64,000 bases of DNA from Alphaproteobacteria bacterium (GTDB taxonomy: Bacteria; Pseudomonadota; Alphaproteobacteria; GCA-2731375), in contig JADHTB010000010.1 in the NCBI GenBank assembly GCA_016776605.1, positions 8,727 through 72,726 on the forward strand. Direction: 5' to 3'. Positions 10,214-62,680 of this stretch are shown here, one piece after another (within the stretch, counting starts at the first letter, position 1; every line of letters begins with the position of its first letter). Position numbers and translations under genes: made by a program. The notes below the pieces were generated by a model that was not told where the DNA came from, searched no databases, and was given only the letters and a program-made list of their open reading frames with translations.

Positions 10214-10326
10214 TGATTATTCGGTTAGAGCAATTCCGAATTAATGAGAATCGCGGAGCGATTCTAAGTGATTGGAAAAATTGCTCTAATTCTAAAGATC
10301 TGAGCATTTTCATTCTGAAAATGCTC
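10214..10326 (+). repeat. Copy A of the ~110-bp AT-rich intergenic repeat (MITE-like) with CTAGAGCAATT-type termini and two internal palindromes
   Basis: Near-identical to 18124..18232 and to the reverse complement of 23497..23604. Internal palindromes GAATCGCGGAGCGATTC and GAGCATTTTCATTCTGAAAATGCTC. Confidence 0.85.
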
Positions 10327-10341
10327 TAGAGCAATTATTAT

Positions 10342-13787: not shown

Positions 13788-14485
13788 TTCGCCGCCATGG
13801 ACGGCGCTTCATCCAGGCGGCCATCGCGCATGTGAACAATGCGGTCACAGCGTTCCGCCAGGGCGGGGTCGTGGGTGATCAGGATCAGCGTACTATTGGC
13901 GGCCCGATGCAGGCGGAACATCAATTCGATGATCGCCCCGCCCGTGGCGCCATCCAGATTGCCCGTGGGCTCGTCCGCCAACAGCAGACTGGGGCGGTGG
14001 ACCACGGCCCGGGCCAGGGCGACCCGCTGTTGTTCGCCACCCGATAGTTGCGATGGATAGTGACTTAAACGATGCTGCAGGCCAACTTCGGTCAAGGCCG
14101 CCGCCGCGCCGGCGAAGGCATCCCGTACGCCGGCGAATTCGAGGGGCATGGCGACGTTTTCCAGGGCCGACATGGTCGGGATCAGATGAAAGGATTGGAA
14201 AACGATGCCCACATGGTCACGGCGGAACAGGGCCAGGGCGTCTTCGCCCAAATCCTGCAAGGCCTGGCCCGCAACCTGGACCCGGCCGCGGCTGGGGCGT
14301 TCCAGGCCGGCCATCACCGCCATCAAGGTGGATTTGCCGGAGCCCGAGGGGCCAACCAGACCGACCGTTTCACCCCTGGGGACAGACAGGTCAACGCCGC
14401 GTAAGATGTCCACCGGCCCGGCCTCGCTGGGCAGGGTCAAATGCACATCGTTCAGGTCGATCATGATATCAGCAGAATTTGTCAT
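13784..14485 (-). CDS. ybbA: ABC transporter ATP-binding protein (YbbA/LolD-like)
   Basis: Walker A GPSGSGKST, signature LSGGEQQRVALARA, Walker B LLLADEPTGNLD. The track ORF extends to 14506; an internal Met start is chosen to leave room for a divergent promoter region. Confidence 0.8.
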   Translation of the reverse strand: MTNSADIMIDLNDVHLTLPSEAGPVDILRGVDLSVPRGETVGLVGPSGSGKSTLMAVMAGLERPSRGRVQVAGQALQDLGEDALALFRRDHVGIVFQSFHLIPTMSALENVAMPLEFAGVRDAFAGAAAALTEVGLQHRLSHYPSQLSGGEQQRVALARAVVHRPSLLLADEPTGNLDGATGGAIIELMFRLHRAANSTLILITHDPALAERCDRIVHMRDGRLDEAPSMAAN

Positions 14486-14513
14486 AGGTTCCCTATCCGC
14501 CCGCAAGGTATCC

Positions 14514-15161
14514 GTGGCAGATGGCTACGTCACGCGACTTGTCAAGGCGGCGGTTCTTTTTGCCGCCCTGTTTTGGCTAAGTCCCGCCGCCTGGGCAGGG
14601 GAACAAGTGGTCCTGACCTATGGTGACAGCCTGACCGCCGGCTATGGCCTGCCGGCGGCCGATGGCTTCGTGGCCCGGCTGCAAGCCAGCCTGCGGCAGC
14701 GGGGCCGCGACGTGCGGGTGCGGAACGGCAGCGTCTCGGGCGAGACCACGGCCGGCGGCCGGGCGCGGCTGGCCTGGACCTTAACCGGACAGATCGATCT
14801 GGTGATCCTGGAACTGGGCGCCAATGATGTTCTACGCGGCATCGATCCGGTGGAAACCCGCCGTAATCTGGACAACATCCTGACAGCGCTTCGCCAACGC
14901 GGCTTGCCCGTCCTGCTGGCCGGCATGCGGTCGCCGCCCAACCTGGGGCCTATTTATGCCCAGGCTCACAACAAGATTTATCCCGACCTTGCCCGCGGCC
15001 ATGGCGTCACCCTGTATCCATTTTTTCTGCAAGGGGTGGCGGCGCGGAAGGCGCTTAATCAAGCCGATGGCATCCACCCGAATGCCGCCGGGGTGCAGGT
15101 CATTGTCGATGCCATGACGCCATATGTGCTAGACCTGCTGGATCGCAAGACGGGGGAGTGA
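14514..15161 (+). CDS. tesA: SGNH/GDSL arylesterase (multifunctional acyl-CoA thioesterase I/protease I/lysophospholipase L1-like)
   Basis: GDSLTAGYG block I after a predicted signal peptide. GTG start at 14514 in frame with the longer track ORF. Divergent from ybbA, as in E. coli. Confidence 0.8.
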   Translation: MADGYVTRLVKAAVLFAALFWLSPAAWAGEQVVLTYGDSLTAGYGLPAADGFVARLQASLRQRGRDVRVRNGSVSGETTAGGRARLAWTLTGQIDLVILELGANDVLRGIDPVETRRNLDNILTALRQRGLPVLLAGMRSPPNLGPIYAQAHNKIYPDLARGHGVTLYPFFLQGVAARKALNQADGIHPNAAGVQVIVDAMTPYVLDLLDRKTGE

Positions 15162-15165
15162 CAGA

Positions 15166-15750
15166 TTGCGGCTGTTCGTGGCGATTTCATTGCCGGACCG
15201 GATCAAGGATACCCTGACCGCGCTTTGCGGTGGGGTTGACGGCGCCCGCTGGCGCGACCGCGCGCAATTGCATCTGACCCTTCGCTTCATTGGCGAGGTC
15301 GATGGCGCCATGGCCCGGGACATTGACGATGTTCTGCACCGGATCACGATGCCGGCCTTTTCCCTGACCCTGCGGCGCACCGGCTTTTTCAAGGAACGCA
15401 AGCTGGCCCGTGTGCTGTGGGCGGGCGTTGAAGACCATAAGCCGCTGCGTACCTTGCATGGCAAGATCCAGCACGGCTTGCAGGCCATTGGCCTGGAGCC
15501 GGAGCATCGCCGCTACCACCCCCACGTCACCCTGGCCCGTCTGGACGGCATCGCCCCCTTGGAGGCAGAAGGCTATGCCGCGCGTTATAGCGAATACGCC
15601 TCGCCGCCCTTCACGGTGGACCATTTTAGCTTAATCTCGTCCCACCTGGCGCGGCAAGGGGCTATTTATACGGTGGAAGCGGATTATGCCCTGGATCAAT
15701 CTCTGGAATCTTCAATCGCCGCCATATCCGCATCGGAGAATCCGAAATGA
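15166..15750 (+). CDS. thpR: RNA 2',3'-cyclic phosphodiesterase (2H family, LigT/ThpR)
   Basis: Two H-x-T/S-x motifs (HLTLRF and HVTLAR) about 80 aa apart; 194 aa. Confidence 0.8.
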   Translation: MRLFVAISLPDRIKDTLTALCGGVDGARWRDRAQLHLTLRFIGEVDGAMARDIDDVLHRITMPAFSLTLRRTGFFKERKLARVLWAGVEDHKPLRTLHGKIQHGLQAIGLEPEHRRYHPHVTLARLDGIAPLEAEGYAARYSEYASPPFTVDHFSLISSHLARQGAIYTVEADYALDQSLESSIAAISASENPK

Positions 15751-16097
15751 TGGCCGATTTCATGGATCAGGACATGCCGCACAAGATTTTTCAGTTCTTC
15801 GCCGCATTCAATCCAGTATTCCAGCAGGGGCCGGCGGTAGAGGAAGATGATGTCCACATCTTCGGGCACGGCCGTAACGCTTTTCCGCTCCAGACTGACG
15901 CCGCTGTACATTCCCAGCAGATCGTAGGGTGTATTCAGGGCCAACGCACGGATGGTTTCGTCATCGGGAAAGTCGACCACCTGGATCACCAGATCGGTCA
16001 ATTGCTGCCGCAGCGGCGGCGGAATGCGGTCCAACGTGGCCCGCGCCATGTCCTCTATTTCGGCCAACGTAGGGGCCATGCTGTTGCCCTTTGCCAT
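15696..16097 (-). CDS. Small zinc metallopeptidase-family protein (HExxH)
   Basis: HEIGHHFGFSD zincin-like motif; about 130 aa. Convergent with thpR, overlapping its 3' end by about 55 nt. Confidence 0.6.
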   Translation of the reverse strand: MAKGNSMAPTLAEIEDMARATLDRIPPPLRQQLTDLVIQVVDFPDDETIRALALNTPYDLLGMYSGVSLERKSVTAVPEDVDIIFLYRRPLLEYWIECGEELKNLVRHVLIHEIGHHFGFSDADMAAIEDSRD

Positions 16098-17819: not shown

Positions 17820-18113
17820 ATGAGCGATCTACTACAAGAAAACTGCCGCCGCGAAGCACTGGCTGGCCTATCCGGCTGGCAACTGCAAGACGGGCGAGAT
17901 GCCATACAGAAATCCTTTACATTCAAGGATTTCAACGCCGCCTTCGCCTTCATGACCCGCATCGCCCTGAAGGCCGAGGCTATGAACCATCACCCGGAAT
18001 GGAACAACGTTTACAACCGGGTGGATATTGTCCTGACCAGCCACGACGTGGCCGGCCTAAGCGAACGGGATATCGTCCTGGCCACCTTCATTGATGCCGC
18101 CGCGTCGGATTGA
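17820..18113 (+). CDS. phhB: 4a-hydroxytetrahydrobiopterin (pterin-4a-carbinolamine) dehydratase
   Basis: [20 protein letters not shown] signature; 97 aa. Lies 4 nt after the Sel1 gene. Confidence 0.85.
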
Positions 18114-18123
18114 GCCATCCGGA

Positions 18124-18232
18124 TCTAGAGCAATTCCGGATTAATGAGAATCGCGAAGCGATCCTAAGTGATTGGAAAAACTGCTCTAATTCTAAAGATC
18201 TGAGCATTTTCAGAATGAAAATGCTCTAGAGC
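18124..18232 (+). repeat. Copy B of the ~110-bp intergenic repeat family
   Basis: About 90% identical to copy A over its full length. Confidence 0.85.
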
Positions 18233-18235
18233 GTT

Positions 18236-18408
18236 TCCGGGCTATTCTGAACCATTTGACCGCTCACCAAGGCCCCGTGGGTAGGCGCGGTTTGCAGGTC
18301 GATGTGGTGCATCGTCCAAGAACCGCAACGCAGCCACGGGGCCTTGGTGAGCGGCCTTCGGTGGCACCCCTAAGCCATCAAATGGACCAGAATAGCCCGG
18401 AAATGCTC
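18236..18408. repeat. Long imperfect hairpin element (about 170 nt) inserted next to repeat copy B
   Basis: Outer arms CCGGGCTATTCTG / CAGAATAGCCCGG and inner arms GCTCACCAAGGCCCCGTGG / CCACGGGGCCTTGGTGAGC. Its core CGATGTGGTGCATCGTCCAAGA is shared with the element at 34005..34160. It is flanked by a near-duplicate of GAAAATGCTCTAGAGC, which looks like a target duplication. Confidence 0.6.
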
Positions 18409-19169
18409 TAGCGGGGCGCCATGCGAATGGCGCCGTCCAGGCGGATGGTTTCGCCATTCAGCATGACGTTTTCCACAATCTGCCGGGCCAGTTGGGCATA
18501 TTCGCTGGGCACACCCAGTTTCTTGGGGAACGGCACACTGGCCGCCAGCGACGCCCGCACGTCATCGGGCAGGGTGCCCAACAGGGGTGTCTCGAAAATT
18601 CCCGGCGCGATGGTGCAAACGCGGATGCCCTTGTCCGCCAGATCGCGGGCGACCGGCAGGGTCATGCCGACGATGCCGCCTTTCGAGGCGGAATAGGCGG
18701 CCTGGCCGACCTGACCATCGAAGGCGGCGACCGAGGCGGTGTTGATGACCACGCCGCGTTCGCCATGCTCCAACGGCTCTAAATCCACCATATCGGTGCT
18801 GGCAAGACGGATGCAATTAAAGGTGCCTATCAGGTTGATCTTGATGATCCGTTCGAACTGATCGAGGGGATGGGCGGCACCGCGGGAGGTTGTCTTGACC
18901 GCTACGCCGGTACCGGCACAGTTGACCAGAATGCGGGCCGTGCCAAAGGCTTCCCTGGTCTCGCCCAGGGCGGCAACCACACTGTCTTCCGAGGTGACAT
19001 CGCATTTGCAGAAGATACCGCCCACGGCCTTTGCCACGGCCATGCCTTTATCTTCCTGAATGTCCCAGATCGCTACTTGTGCGCCGGCGCCGGCCAGTTC
19101 CCTGGCCGTACCCTCGCCCAGGCCCGAGGCGCCGCCGGTAATGATCGCTACCTGTCCGTCGATTTGCAT
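18408..19169 (-). CDS. SDR-family oxidoreductase, 3-hydroxyacyl-CoA dehydrogenase type-2-like
   Basis: TGGASGLG cofactor-binding motif and YSASK active-site motif; 253 aa. Confidence 0.8.
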
Positions 19170-20559: not shown

Positions 20560-20722
20560 CCCTGGGGCCCGTCAAAATCAGCGCCAAATACGTTGCTTGT
20601 GTGCATGGCCGCAACCTAGAGCAGATCCGGGATATTGTGAACCATGGCCAAAAACCATGCCCAAAAACGATGACCAGAAACGATGGTATGGTGGCGAATT
20701 CGCGCATGGCGTAAACTGCTGA

Positions 20723-23496: not shown

Positions 23497-23604
23497 GCTA
23501 GAGCATTTTCATTCTGAAAATGCTCAGATCTTTAGAATTAGAGCAATTTTTCCAATCACTTAGAATCGCTTCGCGATTCTCTGTAATTCGGAATGGCTCT
23601 AGCC
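23497..23604 (-). repeat. Copy C of the ~110-bp intergenic repeat family, inverted orientation
   Basis: Its reverse complement aligns over its full length with copies A and B. Confidence 0.85.
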
Positions 23605-32761: not shown

Positions 32762-33889
32762 TTACTCTGTCGGGACCAGGGCCATTCGTTCCTGGCCAGC
32801 CTGCATTTCCGCCACCTTGGCCTCGACCAACGCGACCACATGATCAACAAAGCCTTCATCGCCGATCTTGTGATCGGCAACGCCGCTTAGATACACTAAA
32901 TGGGTGCCGTGGCCACCGCCGGTAACACCGATATCGGTTTCCCGTGCCTCGCCCGGGCCATTTACCACGCAGCCCATGATGGACAGGGTCAGCGGTGTGA
33001 CGATATGGGCCAGGCGTTGTTCCAAGGCTTCCACCGTCTTGATCACGGGAAAGGCCTGGCGCGCGCAGGACGGGCAGCTAACGATGGAGACCCCACGATG
33101 GCGCAGGCCCAGGGCCTTCAATATCTCGAAACCAGCATGGATTTCCTCGACCGGGTCGGCGGACAGGGAAACCCGGATGGTGTCGCCAATACCGGCCCAC
33201 AAAAGATTGCCAAGGCCGATGGACGACTTGACCGTGCCGCCCCGCAAGGCGCCGGCCTCGGTAATGCCCAGGTGCAGGGGATAGTCACAGGCATCCGCCA
33301 GGGCCTGATAGGCGGCAACGCAAAGAAACACATCCGATGCCTTGACCGAAATCTTAAAGTCTTCAAAGTTATTGTCTTCCAGCAACCGGGCATGGTTCAA
33401 GGCGCTTTCCACCATCGCCTCCGGGCAGGGTTCGCCATAACGTTCCAGCAATTCGCGTTCCAGGCTGCCGGCATTGACGCCAATGCGCATGGAACAGCCG
33501 TTGGCCCGGGCGGCCTGTATCACCTCACGCACCCGGCTTTCAGAGCCGATATTGCCCGGATTGATACGTAAACAGGCAGCGCCGTTGTCGGCTGCTTCCA
33601 AGGCCCGGCGATAATGGAAATGAATGTCGGCGATAATCGGCACGCTGACCTGATCGACAATGTCGCGCAGGGCGGCCGAAGACGCTTCATCGGGGCAGGA
33701 AACCCGGACGATATCCGCGCCGGCCGCCTCCAATGCCTTGATCTGGGCCACCGTCGCGGCGACATCATGGGTCAGCGTCGTGGTCATGGATTGCACCGAG
33801 ATCGGCGCGCTGCCGCCGACGGCAACGTCACCAACCTTCACCTGACGGCAAGTCCGCCGCTGAATATCGCGATAGGGACGTAGGCTCAT
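32762..33889 (-). CDS. ispG: 4-hydroxy-3-methylbut-2-enyl diphosphate synthase (flavodoxin type)
   Basis: GcpE-family TIM-barrel and 4Fe-4S domain (CPSCAR...C). Start chosen at MSLRPYRDI. Confidence 0.9.
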
Positions 33890-34004
33890 GATCTGATCCA
33901 GGATACGGGGTGTAAACACGGGACACATAAAATCAGGCCGGAAAAAACACCGCAGACCAGCCTGACCGATGCAATAGCAATAAATTGCTACCGATAACAG
34001 GTAA

Positions 34005-34160
34005 TACCAACCGACGCTGATAGGGACCTACTGAGACGCCTTGGGCCAGTATTCGGGTCGGAGCGCGCCGACGCGATGTGGTGTGCATCGTCAAGACTTC
34101 ACTCCTACCCGAGGGCACGCGAAGGTGATCACAGTAGGTCCCTATCAGCGCCGGTTGGTA
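34005..34160. repeat. Hairpin element bounded by a 29-nt perfect inverted repeat
   Basis: TACCAACCGACGCTGATAGGGACCTACTG (34005-34033) pairs with CAGTAGGTCCCTATCAGCGCCGGTTGGTA (34131-34159). Its internal core GATGTGGTGTGCATCGTCAAGA matches the core of the 18236..18408 element. Confidence 0.6.
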
Positions 34161-34232
34161 TAAGATCAAGGTTCGAGACGGGAAATAACAGACGGATACC
34201 CGATCCTAGAACGCGTTCGAAGAAGCCACGCT

Positions 34233-35948
34233 CTAGGGACCGGAGCCGACCGTGTTGTCCGTGTCGTCCGTGTTGTCGGTCTTAGGCAGCAATTGCGCCC
34301 GCAGGAACTCGGCATTCAATTGAATGTTGCGGCGCACCTGTCCAATAGGCCCCAAGGCGCCCAACGCCTGACCATCCACTATGATTTCGATTGCCCCGGC
34401 ATTGCCGGTCATCAGCACCAAATCGTCGCGGTTCGGGGCGTGATAACTATCACCGGCCCGCAGCATGCGGGTCAGAAGTAATTCATTATTCGCGCCCTGG
34501 ATCTGGACCCAGGATTCGGCGCGCGCGCGCAATTCCACCCGGGAATTGCGGTTCGAGGCGCCATAGACCTGTGGAGGATAGCTCAGGGCACCAGACGCCG
34601 CGGCCTGGGATGCCGGGGATGCCTGCTGGCCCACGGCGCCGTCGGAAGCACCTTCGCTTGCCGCTTCGGGCAAAGCACGGGCCGGCGCCGATGGTGCGGC
34701 GGGCGGCGGCGGCGGGTCGATAGCCGCCTGGACCGATGGCGGGACCGACGGCTGGACTGGGGCGGCCTTTACATCACCGCCCTCACCCAATGACGCGGCG
34801 GGTTGGGCTGCCGTAGATCGGGCTGCCGTGGATTGCGGTACCGCAGATTGGGGCACGACAACTTGCGGCGCCACGGGCTGCGCCTGCGCGGCGTCTTCCA
34901 AGATCACGGGGATCACGGGCGCGGTGCGAACCTCGACCGCCGGCTTAGCGGTGCTGACCATGGCATTTGGCGAAACCGGTGAGGTTGAAGCATCAGCCGC
35001 CGCCAAATTCGCGGCTGCCGGCATATCCCCGATGCTGACGCCGGCGTTCGCCTTGACCGTCGCGGCAGGCGTCTTGGCGGCTTGTTCGCCTTCACCAGAC
35101 CCTGACGTCACCGTTGGCGCGGCCTGGCCCACGGCCTCCGGATTGGCGACTGTAGCTGCCAGGTTTGCGACGGCTCCAACATTCGGTGTTGCCGCCGCCG
35201 CATCGTTATTGGCCACGGCATCGTTATCAGCCACGGCATCGTTATCAGCCACGGCATTGCTGTTAACCGCATTACTATCAACAGCTATCTGCTCAGCAGC
35301 GGCCTGGCGCGCGGGCTCGGGTGCGGGAACGGACGGCGCAACGGCCACATTGGCTGTGTCTGCCTTAGGGGCAGTGTCCGCGGTATCCGTCGCCGCCTGA
35401 TAGGGTGTAAAGCGTTCCGGCGGTTCAGCCACCACTTCAATTGGCAAAAGCCCCTGCCGCTCCAGGAAAATCCAACCACCGTAGACCGCACCCGCCAACA
35501 GCAATGAGACCAGCGCCAACCGCAAGCCCGGGCGTCGGGCCTCGTCCAGCGGTTCCGGTATAACGATACGGCGTTCTACCGGAACAAGGGTCGCCTCGCG
35601 CTTGAACTGGCGGATAACCTCATCGCCATCAAGTCCAAGAAATTCACTGTACGTGCGGAGGAAGCCGATAGCATAGGTCGGCCCTGGCAAACCATCAGTG
35701 CGGCCCTCTTCCAACGCCAACAAATGCGCCTGTTGGATACGCAGCTCGCTTGAAATTTCCGCCAGGGAAAGCTGCCGCCGTTGCCTCTCGGCCCGCAAGT
35801 TGGTGCCTACGCCGCTGTAAACCTCCACGTCACCCGATTCCACGATCTGTTGCAAGTGCAGGCCACGCCCATTCCCGCGCCGCCGGCTATCCTTGCCGCC
35901 CTGTGGTTCCTTCCCAGGCAATTCATCCATAATATTTGGATCAGTCAT
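34233..35948 (-). CDS. rodZ: Cytoskeleton protein RodZ (HTH-XRE domain, single transmembrane segment, long low-complexity periplasmic linker, DUF4115)
   Basis: N-terminal HTH (LRAERQRRQLSLAEISSELRIQQAHLLALEEG), a transmembrane segment, an Ala/Pro/Val-rich linker with tandem NDAVAD repeats, and a C-terminal DUF4115-like domain. Confidence 0.8.
   Translation of the reverse strand: MTDPNIMDELPGKEPQGGKDSRRRGNGRGLHLQQIVESGDVEVYSGVGTNLRAERQRRQLSLAEISSELRIQQAHLLALEEGRTDGLPGPTYAIGFLRTYSEFLGLDGDEVIRQFKREATLVPVERRIVIPEPLDEARRPGLRLALVSLLLAGAVYGGWIFLERQGLLPIEVVAEPPERFTPYQAATDTADTAPKADTANVAVAPSVPAPEPARQAAAEQIAVDSNAVNSNAVADNDAVADNDAVANNDAAAATPNVGAVANLAATVANPEAVGQAAPTVTSGSGEGEQAAKTPAATVKANAGVSIGDMPAAANLAAADASTSPVSPNAMVSTAKPAVEVRTAPVIPVILEDAAQAQPVAPQVVVPQSAVPQSTAARSTAAQPAASLGEGGDVKAAPVQPSVPPSVQAAIDPPPPPAAPSAPARALPEAASEGASDGAVGQQASPASQAAASGALSYPPQVYGASNRNSRVELRARAESWVQIQGANNELLLTRMLRAGDSYHAPNRDDLVLMTGNAGAIEIIVDGQALGALGPIGQVRRNIQLNAEFLRAQLLPKTDNTDDTDNTVGSGP
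35194..35265. repeat. Four imperfect 18-bp tandem repeats inside rodZ (GCCACGGCATCGTTATCA)
   Basis: Direct repeats visible in the DNA; they encode AVADND-type repeats in the RodZ linker. Confidence 0.8.
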
Positions 35949-40177: not shown

Positions 40178-40918
40178 ATGAGCCAGGCAGCAAGCATCGA
40201 CCCGGTTGAAATTGACCGCTTCGCACGGATGGCGGCGCAATGGTGGGACGCCGATGGACCCATGGCGCCGTTGCATCGCCTTAACCCCACTCGTTTGCAA
40301 TACAGCCGCGCGCGCCTATGCGGCCATTTCAATTTGGACGCTGGCGATCTTCGGCCCCTGGCCGGCCTGCGGTTGTTGGATGTGGGCTGTGGCGGCGGCC
40401 TTTTATCCGAGCCATTCGCCCGCATGGGGGCTTCGGTCGTAGGCATTGATGCCGGGGTCGAGAATATTGCCGCCGCCGACGCGCATGCGCAGGCAATGGG
40501 ACTCACGGTGGACTACCGGGCCATGGCCGCGGAAGATTTAGCCGCCTCGGGCGTACAATTCGATGCCGTCGTCAGCATGGAGGTGATCGAACATGTGGCC
40601 GATGTAGCCGGCTTTATCGCGGCCCTTGTCGATCTAACACGTCCAGGCGGCGCCTTGTTGTTGGCGACGTTGAACCGTACGCCGCAGTCCTTTTTTTCCG
40701 CCATTCTGGGCGCCGAATACGTGCTGCGCTGGCTGCCCGTGGGCACGCACGACTGGCAACGCTTTCGCAAGCCCGCGGAACTGGGCCGGTATCTACGCCA
40801 GGCCGGCGCGGAACTGCGGGACGTCACCGGCATGCGCTATTTACCTCGTCAGGGGGATTGGCAACTTTCGCGTAATACCGGCGTGAATTATCTGGCCTAT
40901 GCCGTTCGTCCGGCCTAG
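40178..40918 (+). CDS. ubiG: Bifunctional 3-demethylubiquinol 3-O-methyltransferase / 2-polyprenyl-6-hydroxyphenol methylase
   Basis: SAM-binding motif LLDVGCGGGLLSE and overall UbiG similarity; about 246 aa. Confidence 0.9.
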   Translation: MSQAASIDPVEIDRFARMAAQWWDADGPMAPLHRLNPTRLQYSRARLCGHFNLDAGDLRPLAGLRLLDVGCGGGLLSEPFARMGASVVGIDAGVENIAAADAHAQAMGLTVDYRAMAAEDLAASGVQFDAVVSMEVIEHVADVAGFIAALVDLTRPGGALLLATLNRTPQSFFSAILGAEYVLRWLPVGTHDWQRFRKPAELGRYLRQAGAELRDVTGMRYLPRQGDWQLSRNTGVNYLAYAVRPA

Positions 40919-40972
40919 AGCATTTTCATTCTGAAAATGCTCAGATCTATAGAATTAGAGAAATTTCTCTAA
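40915..40972 (-). repeat. Partial copy D (one palindrome arm) of the intergenic repeat family
   Basis: CTAGAGCATTTTCATTCTGAAAATGCTCAGATCTATAGAATTAGAG matches the first half of copy C. Confidence 0.7.
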
Positions 40973-40991
40973 GCCCCGCCGTGTTCCGCCA

Positions 40992-41543
40992 TCAATCCGC
41001 CTGATAGTCGTCCGGGAAATAATCGCGGACGTAGGGACTGTTTAGGGCATAGGCATAGCAGGAATTGCGCAGACCAGGGCTGAGAGACAGGCGGCCGGTA
41101 TTGTTGGGATCCATATTTTCAACGACCTCGAACAGGGATTGCATGGCCGTCGTCGCCATTTGTGCCAGCATTTCGTTCAAATGTGTGCAACCCACCACCC
41201 CGCCCAAACGTTCGCGGACGGCACGGTTCCAGCCAGGTCCCATTTTTAACCCCTGCAAGCGGCTGTAATTGGGTGCCGCCAGGGGACAGGGTCCATGGGC
41301 GCCCACATCCATCTGGGCTTCCGCCGCACGGACCACCAGATCCGTATCGATGGTCAGACGCAGCCACATATCATGCACCGGCTGATCCGCCGTACGCTCG
41401 CTGTCCAGCATGCTGTAGTCGTCTTCCTTGACATCGGTAATATGACCTTCGATGTCCCACAGGCCGTCCTGGCGTTCGTAGGCTTTTAATTCAAGGATAC
41501 GGGTATGGGACAAGGCGCGCGGCGCGGGATCGCTTAGGGGCAA
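40992..41543 (-). CDS. DUF2889-like protein
   Basis: Conserved GCTHLNE(M/L)L-type motif; 183 aa. Confidence 0.5.
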   Translation of the reverse strand: MPLSDPAPRALSHTRILELKAYERQDGLWDIEGHITDVKEDDYSMLDSERTADQPVHDMWLRLTIDTDLVVRAAEAQMDVGAHGPCPLAAPNYSRLQGLKMGPGWNRAVRERLGGVVGCTHLNEMLAQMATTAMQSLFEVVENMDPNNTGRLSLSPGLRNSCYAYALNSPYVRDYFPDDYQAD

Positions 41544-41649
41544 GGGAGGCTCCTGATAATATTCCAGATAATGTGAGCATTCTAGAACATCCCGGAACCG
41601 CTCTAGAGGCCGCCGTCGCGGGGACAGCCATGACGGACAGAGAAGCCGC

Positions 41650-61935: not shown

Positions 61936-62242
61936 TTTATGGGATATCATGCCTTAATATGCCCGTCAATTATTAAACAAATAATTAATTGGCGTTCTCA
62001 AAGTTAAAATTAGAGCAATGAAGTGTTTCGCCAAATGCCGCGAGCGATCAAATCCGGCTTGATCTATAAAATTACCAGACGATTCAGAGCAACAATCAGG
62101 ATGGTCTATAGGAACAATGAGGCGAAACCTTGTTCCTTTTATGTTCTTATTGTTATTTTTGCTCCGCACGGCGTGGTGCCAAAGCTCTTTCGAGATTGGC
62201 TGAACCACCCGCGCTCCGCATCGGCACATTATGAAGAAGGGG

Positions 62243-62680
<438 letters not shown>

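Follow-up and report, generated by a model that had tools for sequence, protein, structure and literature searches.

We analysed a 64,000-nt stretch of alphaproteobacterial DNA (contig JADHTB010000010.1; hereafter the window) in which two gene spacers hold long hairpin elements, here called e1 and e2. Element e1 occupies positions 18229–18408, between phhB (17820–18113, + strand) and a gene of the SDR family (18408–19169, − strand), and element e2 occupies positions 34005–34160, in the spacer that separates two − strand genes, ispG (start at 33889) and rodZ (stop at 34233). The gene coordinates bear out the intergenic location that a first-pass annotation, made from the sequence, had given to both elements, and the sole open reading frame (ORF) overlapping e1, a mechanical ORF of 71 aa (18242–18457, − strand), is taken as spurious. 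That annotation had proposed a distinct family of miniature transposable elements with inverted repeats (MITEs), or structured small RNAs, as candidate identities for the two hairpins.

Inverted repeats, fold, relatives and empty sites mark e1 as a 180-bp MITE derivative with ends GAGCGTTTCCGGG...CCCGGAAATGCTC (termini, as read directly, GAGCGTTTCCGG...CCGGAAATGCTC), which belongs to the terminal class named A below. As single-stranded RNA, e1 has a minimum free energy (MFE) of −131.8 kcal/mol (z = −15.7 against 200 dinucleotide shuffles), so that the long imperfect hairpin first drawn at 18236–18408 is real, within element boundaries of 18229–18408. Its outer and inner arms exist as well, but their lengths had been put too short, at 13 and 19 nt; we found outer arms of 39 nt with 87% complementarity (18226–18264/18373–18411) and inner arms of 21 nt with perfect complementarity (18260–18280/18334–18354). 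A TA lies on either side, as at other class-A copies. The left TA (18227–18228, within the CTAG at 18226–18229) is common to e1 and the right end of an adjoining repeat, the family-1 MITE, and the right TA (18409–18410) is the target duplication. The target CTAG overlaps the stop codon of the SDR gene, the TAG there, on the − strand, being made of the duplicated TA and the terminal base of e1, C18408.

Element e2 is a 156-bp MITE derivative of class B with ends TACCAACCGACGCTGATAGGGACC...GGTCCCTATCAGCGCCGGTTGGTA. Its termini, TACCAACCGNCGCTGATAGGGACC, are unrelated to those of e1, and it is flanked on each side by TAA (34002–34004 and 34161–34163), which the empty-site alignment identifies as the left and right copies of a 3-bp target duplication; the duplication is thus TA for e1 versus TAA for e2. 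The arms of e2 (34004–34063/34102–34161) are 60 nt long and 77% complementary, and the MFE is −94.5 kcal/mol (z = −9.6 against shuffles). An outer repeat described at first as a perfect 29-nt inverted repeat is present, although as 30 nt with one mismatch (A34014 opposite C). Beside e2, the 3' end of rodZ contains three tandem 9-nt units (CGACCGTGT/TGTCCGTGT/CGTCCGTGT; 34247–34280).

Comparison of both sites with relatives revealed precise empty sites, the opposite of what ancestral intergenic sequence would give, and showed that e1 and e2 are both insertions. In the following, L numbers are labels of the retrieved loci or contigs that were compared with the window. By the names that its nearest IspG and SDR homologues bear, the host of the window is an uncultured alphaproteobacterium. 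All contigs with an identical IspG carry e2. In relatives whose IspG is 92–95% identical, the rodZ–ispG spacer measures 154–192 bp versus 343 bp in the window, and the empty site (L174/176, L178 and L179/181) reads ..GATCTTG|CCTGT.. where the window has GATC-TTA-[e2]-TTA-CCTGT, the sequences being otherwise colinear. In L174 and L176, where e2 is lacking, a class-B terminus (CAGGTCCCTATCAGCGCCGGGTGGTA-TAA) stands alone ~35 nt upstream of the empty site, so that elements have entered this spacer repeatedly.

For e1, all contigs with an identical PhhB that reach far enough carry the family-1 MITE and e1 in tandem. The relatives compared have an SDR protein 91–94% identical to that of the window. 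In L183 (SDR 94% identical) the e1 site is unoccupied and reads ..CCTCTAGCGGGG (also given as ..CCTCTAGCGGGGCGCC). L184–187 are empty at the TA of e1, with a decayed family-1 MITE in another part of the spacer, and the more distant L168 is likewise empty (..GGATTAACGGGG). L188/189 have a different, 48-bp mini-element, GAGCAAC...GTTGCTC, at the TA used by e1 in the window. The same SDR–phhB spacer of L188/L189 (~2263–2361) contains a second TA-flanked mini-palindrome, GCGCATG..TTCAATTGAA..CATGCGC, and these mini-palindromes may be minimal MITEs with little beyond termini.

We next consider the relation between e1 and e2. The core shared by their apices, CGATGTG--GTGCATCGT(C)CAAGA, aligns with a local score of 30, which was reached by 1 of 1000 shuffles and by 6 of 791 real windows; this similarity alone is only suggestive. 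As judged from sequence comparison, full-length relatives prove the internal homology, and the shared core seen in the first-pass annotation thus reflects true common descent. A gapped-core scan of one genome per species gave 37 loci, five of which are e1-type elements in three alphaproteobacterial metagenome-assembled genomes (MAGs; Rhodospirillaceae and unclassified Alphaproteobacteria). Roughly 25 of these loci were rejected as instances of the nonribosomal peptide synthetase (NRPS) condensation-domain motif MHHIVSDGWS on the other strand, and several others as unrelated single occurrences. The core 21-mer CGATGTGGTGCATCGTCAAGA is the reverse complement of the motif (L)TMHHIVSDGWS, and such coding matches in NRPS genes were seen in Myxococcota, Acidobacteriota and Planctomycetota (L012, L015, L016, L019, L021–L023 and others).

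The e1-type elements of the MAGs measure 265–284 bp and show the order terminal repeat, CATTTGA, hairpin 1, CCTTCGG, hairpin 2, TCAAATGG, terminal repeat. Further copies, of the e1 type in L178 and of the e2 type in L046, were found, so that the elements recur beyond the window in both MAGs and metagenomes. Between e1-type and e2-type hairpins the homology spans a whole module, YCGGGTAGGMGCG-N10-CGATG-N5-7-CATCG-..CAAG.., and not just the 17 nt noted at first. The apex of this module, hereafter M, lies in e1 at that earlier core (18300–18316), and the apex of e2 (34074–34090, + strand), CGATG-TGGTGTG-CATCG, is homologous to it.

A search with the pattern GGGTAGGNGCG N9-11 CGATG N5-7 CATCG gave no match in 2.9 million viral contigs, in which the core was likewise absent, and matched at least 120 stretches of metagenome contigs. 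Among the metagenome matches listed, ~105 are the module in a hairpin context and 14 loci are chance matches in coding sequence; some loci hold two or three copies. From the matches listed we delimited 51 complete elements, which follow a common plan of ~260–285 bp with at least four terminal classes. Class A, which includes e1, has GAGC... termini and TA flanks, mostly in the form NTA...TAN. Class B, which includes e2, reads TACCAA...GATAAT...CATTTCATGG and is flanked by TAA/TAA or TTA/TTA, identical on both sides in 11 of 16 copies. Class C has the termini CCCGCATTTCTCACCGGGTCATGG and CTAG or TTAA flanks (identical in 5 of 6 copies), and class D, of ~335 bp, has the termini GGGCCTGTCC.... 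The first few terminal bases, an A/T-rich box, a junction (GATGG/CATGG/GACGG) and the module core are conserved across these subfamilies. The remainder of the terminal stem, like the module's basal stem, is wholly different between subfamilies, yet still complementary.

The full-length copies reveal how the window elements are built. Element e1 corresponds to positions 1–153 and 229–264 of the 265-bp copy in L045 (98% and 94% identity), so that ~75 nt of one hairpin are deleted relative to that copy; it is 97% identical to the copy in L043, and an alignment of six copies was made. The full-length relative of e2, L046:6050–6309, has a TTA flank on each side. Positions 1–88 of e2 match L046 6309–6222 and positions 94–158 match 6114–6050, with 107 central nt missing in e2. 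The one hairpin of e2 is a hybrid in which the 5' half of one M is fused, at the apex, with the 5' half of the other M in antisense. The elements have the features by which MITEs are known: they are small and non-coding (e1 180 bp, e2 156 bp, relatives 260–285 bp), bear terminal inverted repeats (TIRs), are flanked by a duplication confirmed by empty sites, and form a dispersed multi-copy family. Of the proposed distinct MITE family, the MITE nature and the internal relationship of e1 and e2 therefore stand, whereas the two represent two terminal classes of one superfamily, both truncated.

This superfamily of uncultured marine and soil bacteria is large and apparently undescribed. A distant blastn search of 72,556 plasmids with e1 plus the family-1 MITE, e2 and full elements of classes A–D gave no real match, and a literature search by sequence string and by topic retrieved no description of these elements. 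The Rfam search proposed for both elements was run with Rfam 15, at gathering threshold on the window and at E ≤ 1–10 on both loci and ten full-element loci, and no family matched the elements. The only gathering-level match in the window was to RNase P RNA class A (62241–62671, − strand; 302.5 bits).

The full element of ~265 bp begins with a TIR and a hairpin module M; a short linker then leads to a second hairpin of M type, which lies on the opposite strand, and to the TIR at the far end. The whole is in effect two ~130-bp long terminal inverted repeats placed back to back. Each half combines a terminus specific to the class with an A/T-rich box (GATAAT-like), the junction CAWTTGATGG and M itself, of ~95–115 nt. 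The sense strand of each M is the one read 5'→3' from its own element end towards the middle. M combines a freely covarying basal stem with conserved asymmetric internal loops (GGGTAGGMGCG / AGCG-CGATG-loop-CATCG-GGCAAG / CGCRACGC-CCC). Inside the M modules of L092, L119, L145, L162 and L163 a secondary insert of ~30 nt, TCATGCGCAGCGTGCAYKCGCACGACGG, recurs, sometimes twice per module; possibly this is one more mobile palindrome of small size, nested within the module.

We aligned 77 modules, that of e1 included. In this alignment 92.2% of the cells were paired, compared with 35–45% when the partners were slid by 1–3 columns; double-change cells numbered 367, compared with 66–102 in the slid controls; and the covariation score was 0.493 versus ~0.1, the observed values being reached by none of 500 shuffles. 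At least 12 positions that were not forced by the search pattern (AGCG, GGCAAG, RACGC and CCC) are conserved at 90% or more. A covariance model (CM) built from the 77-module alignment detected two opposite-strand modules in classes A and B, arranged tail to tail and overlapping at the linker, as in L051 (126 bits on the − strand and 72 bits on the + strand). Class C elements retain a single M-type module beside a second hairpin of a different kind.

The M-type module retained in e1 (18253–18366, sense on the + strand; GGGTAGGCGCG..CGATG-TGGTG-CATCG-TCCAAG..CGCAACGC) was matched by CM R1 at 91.7 bits, a score that is not independent because the training set included this very module. Near-identical modules in L045, L043 and L178, outside the training set, scored 94–95 bits, and the e1 module fits the pattern that retrieved ~105 other modules among the matches listed. 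Being a hybrid of two halves, e2 escaped detection by the CM.

We then asked whether the two strands of the module are equivalent. The antisense of a module scored 22–40 bits with the CM versus 100–126 bits for the sense, and in the stems G·U outnumbered A·C by 193:30 (31:7 for representatives that share less than 70% identity). M and the second module, M', which was not selected by the search pattern, are each ~6 kcal/mol more stable in sense (44 of 51 elements each; Wilcoxon ~1e-6), whereas the TIR stem of the 51 complete elements showed no strand asymmetry. This asymmetry indicates that one given strand folds, as RNA or single-stranded DNA, and is at odds with a symmetric cruciform and with a binding site that is purely double-stranded.

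A natural case of hairpin loss was provided by L177 and L178, two assemblies (strains) of one species whose IspG is identical. At one and the same locus, L178 carries a complete e1-type element of 266 bp and L177 a one-hairpin element of 163 bp, the first and last 55 nt of which are exact reverse complements of each other. The left arms of the two strains differ at four positions, and each difference in L177 restores pairing with the unchanged right arm. One arm was therefore rewritten from the other when the other hairpin was lost. Such arm conversion explains the mirrored insertions in both halves of L046 and the near-perfect arms, as well as the frequency of one-hairpin derivatives (e1, e2, L067, L116 and L130). 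We propose that arm complementarity would be kept partly by fold-back or template-switch repair at the DNA level, and that the same fold-back instability would delete one hairpin to yield such forms as e1 and e2. Since asymmetric loops would tend to disappear through conversion, it is these loops, together with the G·U over A·C bias, that argue more strongly for the importance of the fold of M. The L177/L178 pair is a clean natural case of such rewriting, and covariation in palindromic repeats should accordingly not count as proof of an RNA.

The family-1 MITE that adjoins e1 bears on how e1 came to its place. Copy B (18128–18226, + strand; 99 bp) has the left terminus GAGCAATTCCGGAT, of the same class as that of e1; further copies lie at 10227–10327 (+) and 23500–23600 (−), with a fragment at 40915–40972. 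The copies are mutually 93–94% identical, each is flanked by TA, usually within CTAG, and they begin GAGCAATTCCGG..., the same kind of terminus as that of e1; the right end is a small hairpin, GAGCATTTTCA-TTC-TGAAAATGCTC. Locally the order is ...GGATC-TA-[family-1 MITE]-TA-[e1]-TA-GCGGGG. The first-pass annotation had read e1 as an insertion into a copy of this first repeat, with a duplicated GAAAATGCTCTAG motif as its target duplication. We found instead that the two GAAAATGCTCTAG(AG)C motifs are the right TIRs of two adjacent elements with one TA (18227–18228) in common, that the true duplication is TA, and that e1 stands in tandem with the family-1 MITE at a regenerated CTAG. Nor is e1 a wholly second family, since its terminus type, GAGCNNTTCCGG, places it in the terminal class of the first repeat. 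Because class-A termini are G...C, CTAG is recreated on both sides of each class-A insertion, which explains tandem arrays such as this one.

A search of the window with the terminal 15-mer gave 12 matches, compared with 1.7 expected. Two class-A termini have no partner and are probably remnants of deleted elements: CTAGAGCAGATCCGGGATATTGTGAACCATGG at 20616–20647 (+), compared by eye with the left end of e1, and CTAGAGCGGTTCCGGGATGTTC at 41592–41606 (−). A composite element spanning 40915–41606 was considered and rejected, as the MITE fragment and the solo end flank an ordinary ORF of 183 aa; its syntenic counterpart in L177/L178, also 183 aa long and beside lpxC, is DUF2889. Many metagenome contigs that carry the phhB of the window (L002–L009) stop inside the family-1 MITE or the e1 hairpin. 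The elements thus break metagenome assemblies, with several phhB contigs terminating within the repeats.

The flanks suggest how such elements would move. A DDE transposase acting in trans would insert them at TA-centred targets, with class A duplicating TA, mostly in CTAG, class B duplicating TWA, and class C left with CTAG/TTAA flanks. In the single-hairpin class-B copy L067:2225–2390, the TAA duplication is the stop codon of an upstream cystathionine beta-synthase-like gene, which recalls the SDR stop codon at e1. Insertions may be steered to gene ends, TA, TWA and CTAG being largely confined to stop codons in GC-rich genomes.

To judge from the duplications only, the enzyme would be like that of IS630/Tc1-mariner (TA/CTAG) or of IS5 (IS1031/IS427; TWA/CTAG); in target choice and duplication length these families match classes A, B and C. 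The ends of the IS1031/IS427 group begin with GAG, and its duplications are 2–4 bp long. A TA-centred duplication of 2–4 bp was found for e2 and class B (TWA) and for class C (CTAG/TTAA). A TA duplication within CTAG, as in IS630, was found for e1 and class A, and not for e2, with its 3-bp duplication. PMC2170065, with the Tenzen & Ohtsubo titles that it cites, gives TA as the sequence duplicated by IS630 and CTAG as its preferred target, and IS1031-group members of the IS5 family recognise 3 nt (PMC2516522).

Both families are present in sister genomes, but with termini different from those of the elements. In L178 an IS630-family (DDE_3) insertion sequence (IS) is inserted exactly at the CTAG end of an e1-type element, and in L177 an IS5-family IS, with CAGTCTGTCGG ends unlike those of e1, is inserted exactly at the same kind of end. 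Tandem arrays thus build up at CTAG sites. The L178 array at this CTAG (14327–15947) consists of a ~175-bp CAGG...CCTG MITE, the IS630-family IS and the e1-type element; at the same site L177 (14327–15908) has the IS5-family IS and a shortened e1-type element, and a third IS, flanked by repeated GGCAAAAAAAAGG, lies farther on in L177.

Taken together, we put at about 0.85 the probability that e1 and e2 descend from ~265-bp MITEs, non-autonomous DNA transposons of the cut-and-paste type, as decayed derivatives that keep one hairpin and are probably immobile; both window copies are probably inactive. Several observations weigh against this reading and against a role of M in it. Neither ~750 kb of retrieved loci nor the window contained an autonomous element with matching termini, and the only IS630-family copy seen (L178:14503–15685) has GTGTCCYGAT ends, unlike those of e1. 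An autonomous IS with M at both ends, as expected if the transposase needs M, was not found among the ~105 matches listed, and the window itself holds a single copy of each element type, besides end fragments. As to the structure of M, the apex stem and the GGGTAGG/GCG positions were forced by the search pattern and carry no weight, the aligned modules are related to each other so that their pair counts are not independent, and arm conversion means that stem covariation can arise without selection for structure. A search of the retrieved loci for own and class-level ends 600–3500 bp apart retrieved only neighbouring MITEs, and the proteins recurring beside the elements belong only to housekeeping families (SDR, ABC transporter, acyl-CoA dehydrogenase and Lgt), with no transposase gene.

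As for M itself, its core is conserved across classes with saturated stems, which we take as selection on propagating lineages, through a cis role in mobilisation or through insertion tolerance. M would then be a cis-acting signal required for propagation and read as a folded single strand. The orientation of the two modules relative to the element ends fits a reading as single-stranded DNA at each transposon end, and we lean slightly towards M acting there as DNA rather than as RNA. Tentatively, M may represent a new class of structured signal, ~115 nt long with asymmetric loops, of which one strand is read as single-stranded DNA or RNA and which has been kept through at least four changes of terminus and transposase. 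If so, M rather than the TIR would be the heritable core of the parasite, and it would act via a partner that is conserved, be it a host factor or some structure-specific step common to several DDE transposases.

It is less likely, though worth weighing, that M is primarily a functional RNA with the MITE as its vehicle, acting as a cis element in read-through transcripts or as a small RNA that binds a host factor; one sense copy per strand would free such a function from insertion orientation. The strong covariation around conserved asymmetric loops, the ~4–6-fold excess of G·U over A·C on the sense strand and the ~6 kcal/mol greater stability of that strand agree with an RNA. The spacers are transcribed, e2 lying inside the rodZ–ispG operon and e1 in 3' untranslated region territory, and the contexts are mostly co-directional or convergent. 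However, the better-conserved M shows no orientation bias relative to the flanking genes (7 vs 4), no promoter or terminator consensus was found in e1 or e2, and no Rfam family matched even at E ≤ 1–10. Arm conversion yields covariation for free, and conservation across classes is easier to obtain through selection on propagation than through host benefit at thousands of unrelated sites.

A REPIN-like origin, in which inverted pairs of repetitive extragenic palindromic (REP)-type hairpins with a GTAG tag are moved as single-stranded DNA by a RAYT/IS200-type HUH transposase, is highly improbable. It is true that in M an imperfect hairpin has GTAG (in GGGTAGG) on its 5' side, that the two modules are inverted, that their folding is strand-specific and that REP dimers of such a kind are described in PMC3733652. 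The true target duplications and clean empty sites, however, point to a staggered cut of the DDE type; the TIRs are long and class-specific, M measures 95–115 nt versus 20–40 nt for REPs with its GTAG in an internal loop and not at the hairpin foot, and no transposase gene recurs nearby. Although the core score is reached by 6 of 791 real windows and the 21-mer occurs by chance in NRPS genes, the proposal that e1 and e2 are ancestral intergenic hairpins (for example terminators) with a fortuitously similar core is virtually untenable, being refuted by the empty sites and opposed by the whole-module homology in full-length relatives, by more than 100 related elements among the matches listed and by the lack of a terminator consensus.

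The MITE reading invites comparison with known small elements. Correia (NEMIS/CREE; Neisseria), ERIC/IRU (enterobacteria) and RUP (pneumococci) elements are, like those described here, small, non-coding and intergenic, with TIRs and a TA duplication; in all of them the whole element folds as a long hairpin, and long and short forms arise by internal deletion. Their transposases act in trans and are IS630-like or of undefined kind. In an informal comparison with the Correia TIR, the class A (GAGCNNTTCCGG) and class B (TACCAA) termini showed no resemblance. Unlike Correia, ERIC and RUP, the present elements carry two ~115-nt subterminal modules with conserved asymmetric loops across at least four terminal classes that differ in duplication length (TA, TWA, CTAG/TTAA); to our knowledge, no such common structured cargo exists in Correia, ERIC or RUP.

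REP/REPIN–RAYT systems likewise have inverted hairpin pairs, GTAG, strand-specific folding and a location downstream of genes. The present elements differ in their TIRs and duplications, in hairpins 3–5 times longer and in showing no association with RAYT. CGTC REPs have stems of 8–9 bp, A-T first pairs and CCA tails (PMC3733652), which the hairpins here do not. The T-shaped hairpin of the parvovirus (adeno-associated virus, AAV) inverted terminal repeat, a long stem closing two palindromes (A-B-B'-C-C'-A'), is alike in shape only. The element described here is chromosomal and bacterial, is flanked by duplications and is not a replicon terminus, and it has no sequence or functional link to the AAV repeat.

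MITEs are thus a known kind of element, and what is new is the structured module common to several terminal classes. Bacterial MITEs are usually defined by their ends, with their interiors treated as junk; here the interior is the conserved part, and the module is common to elements with at least four kinds of terminus and three duplication lengths. If M is needed for mobilisation, it would imply structure-specific recognition in the DDE transposition of bacterial MITEs; if M acts as an RNA, it would be a widespread unclassified motif.

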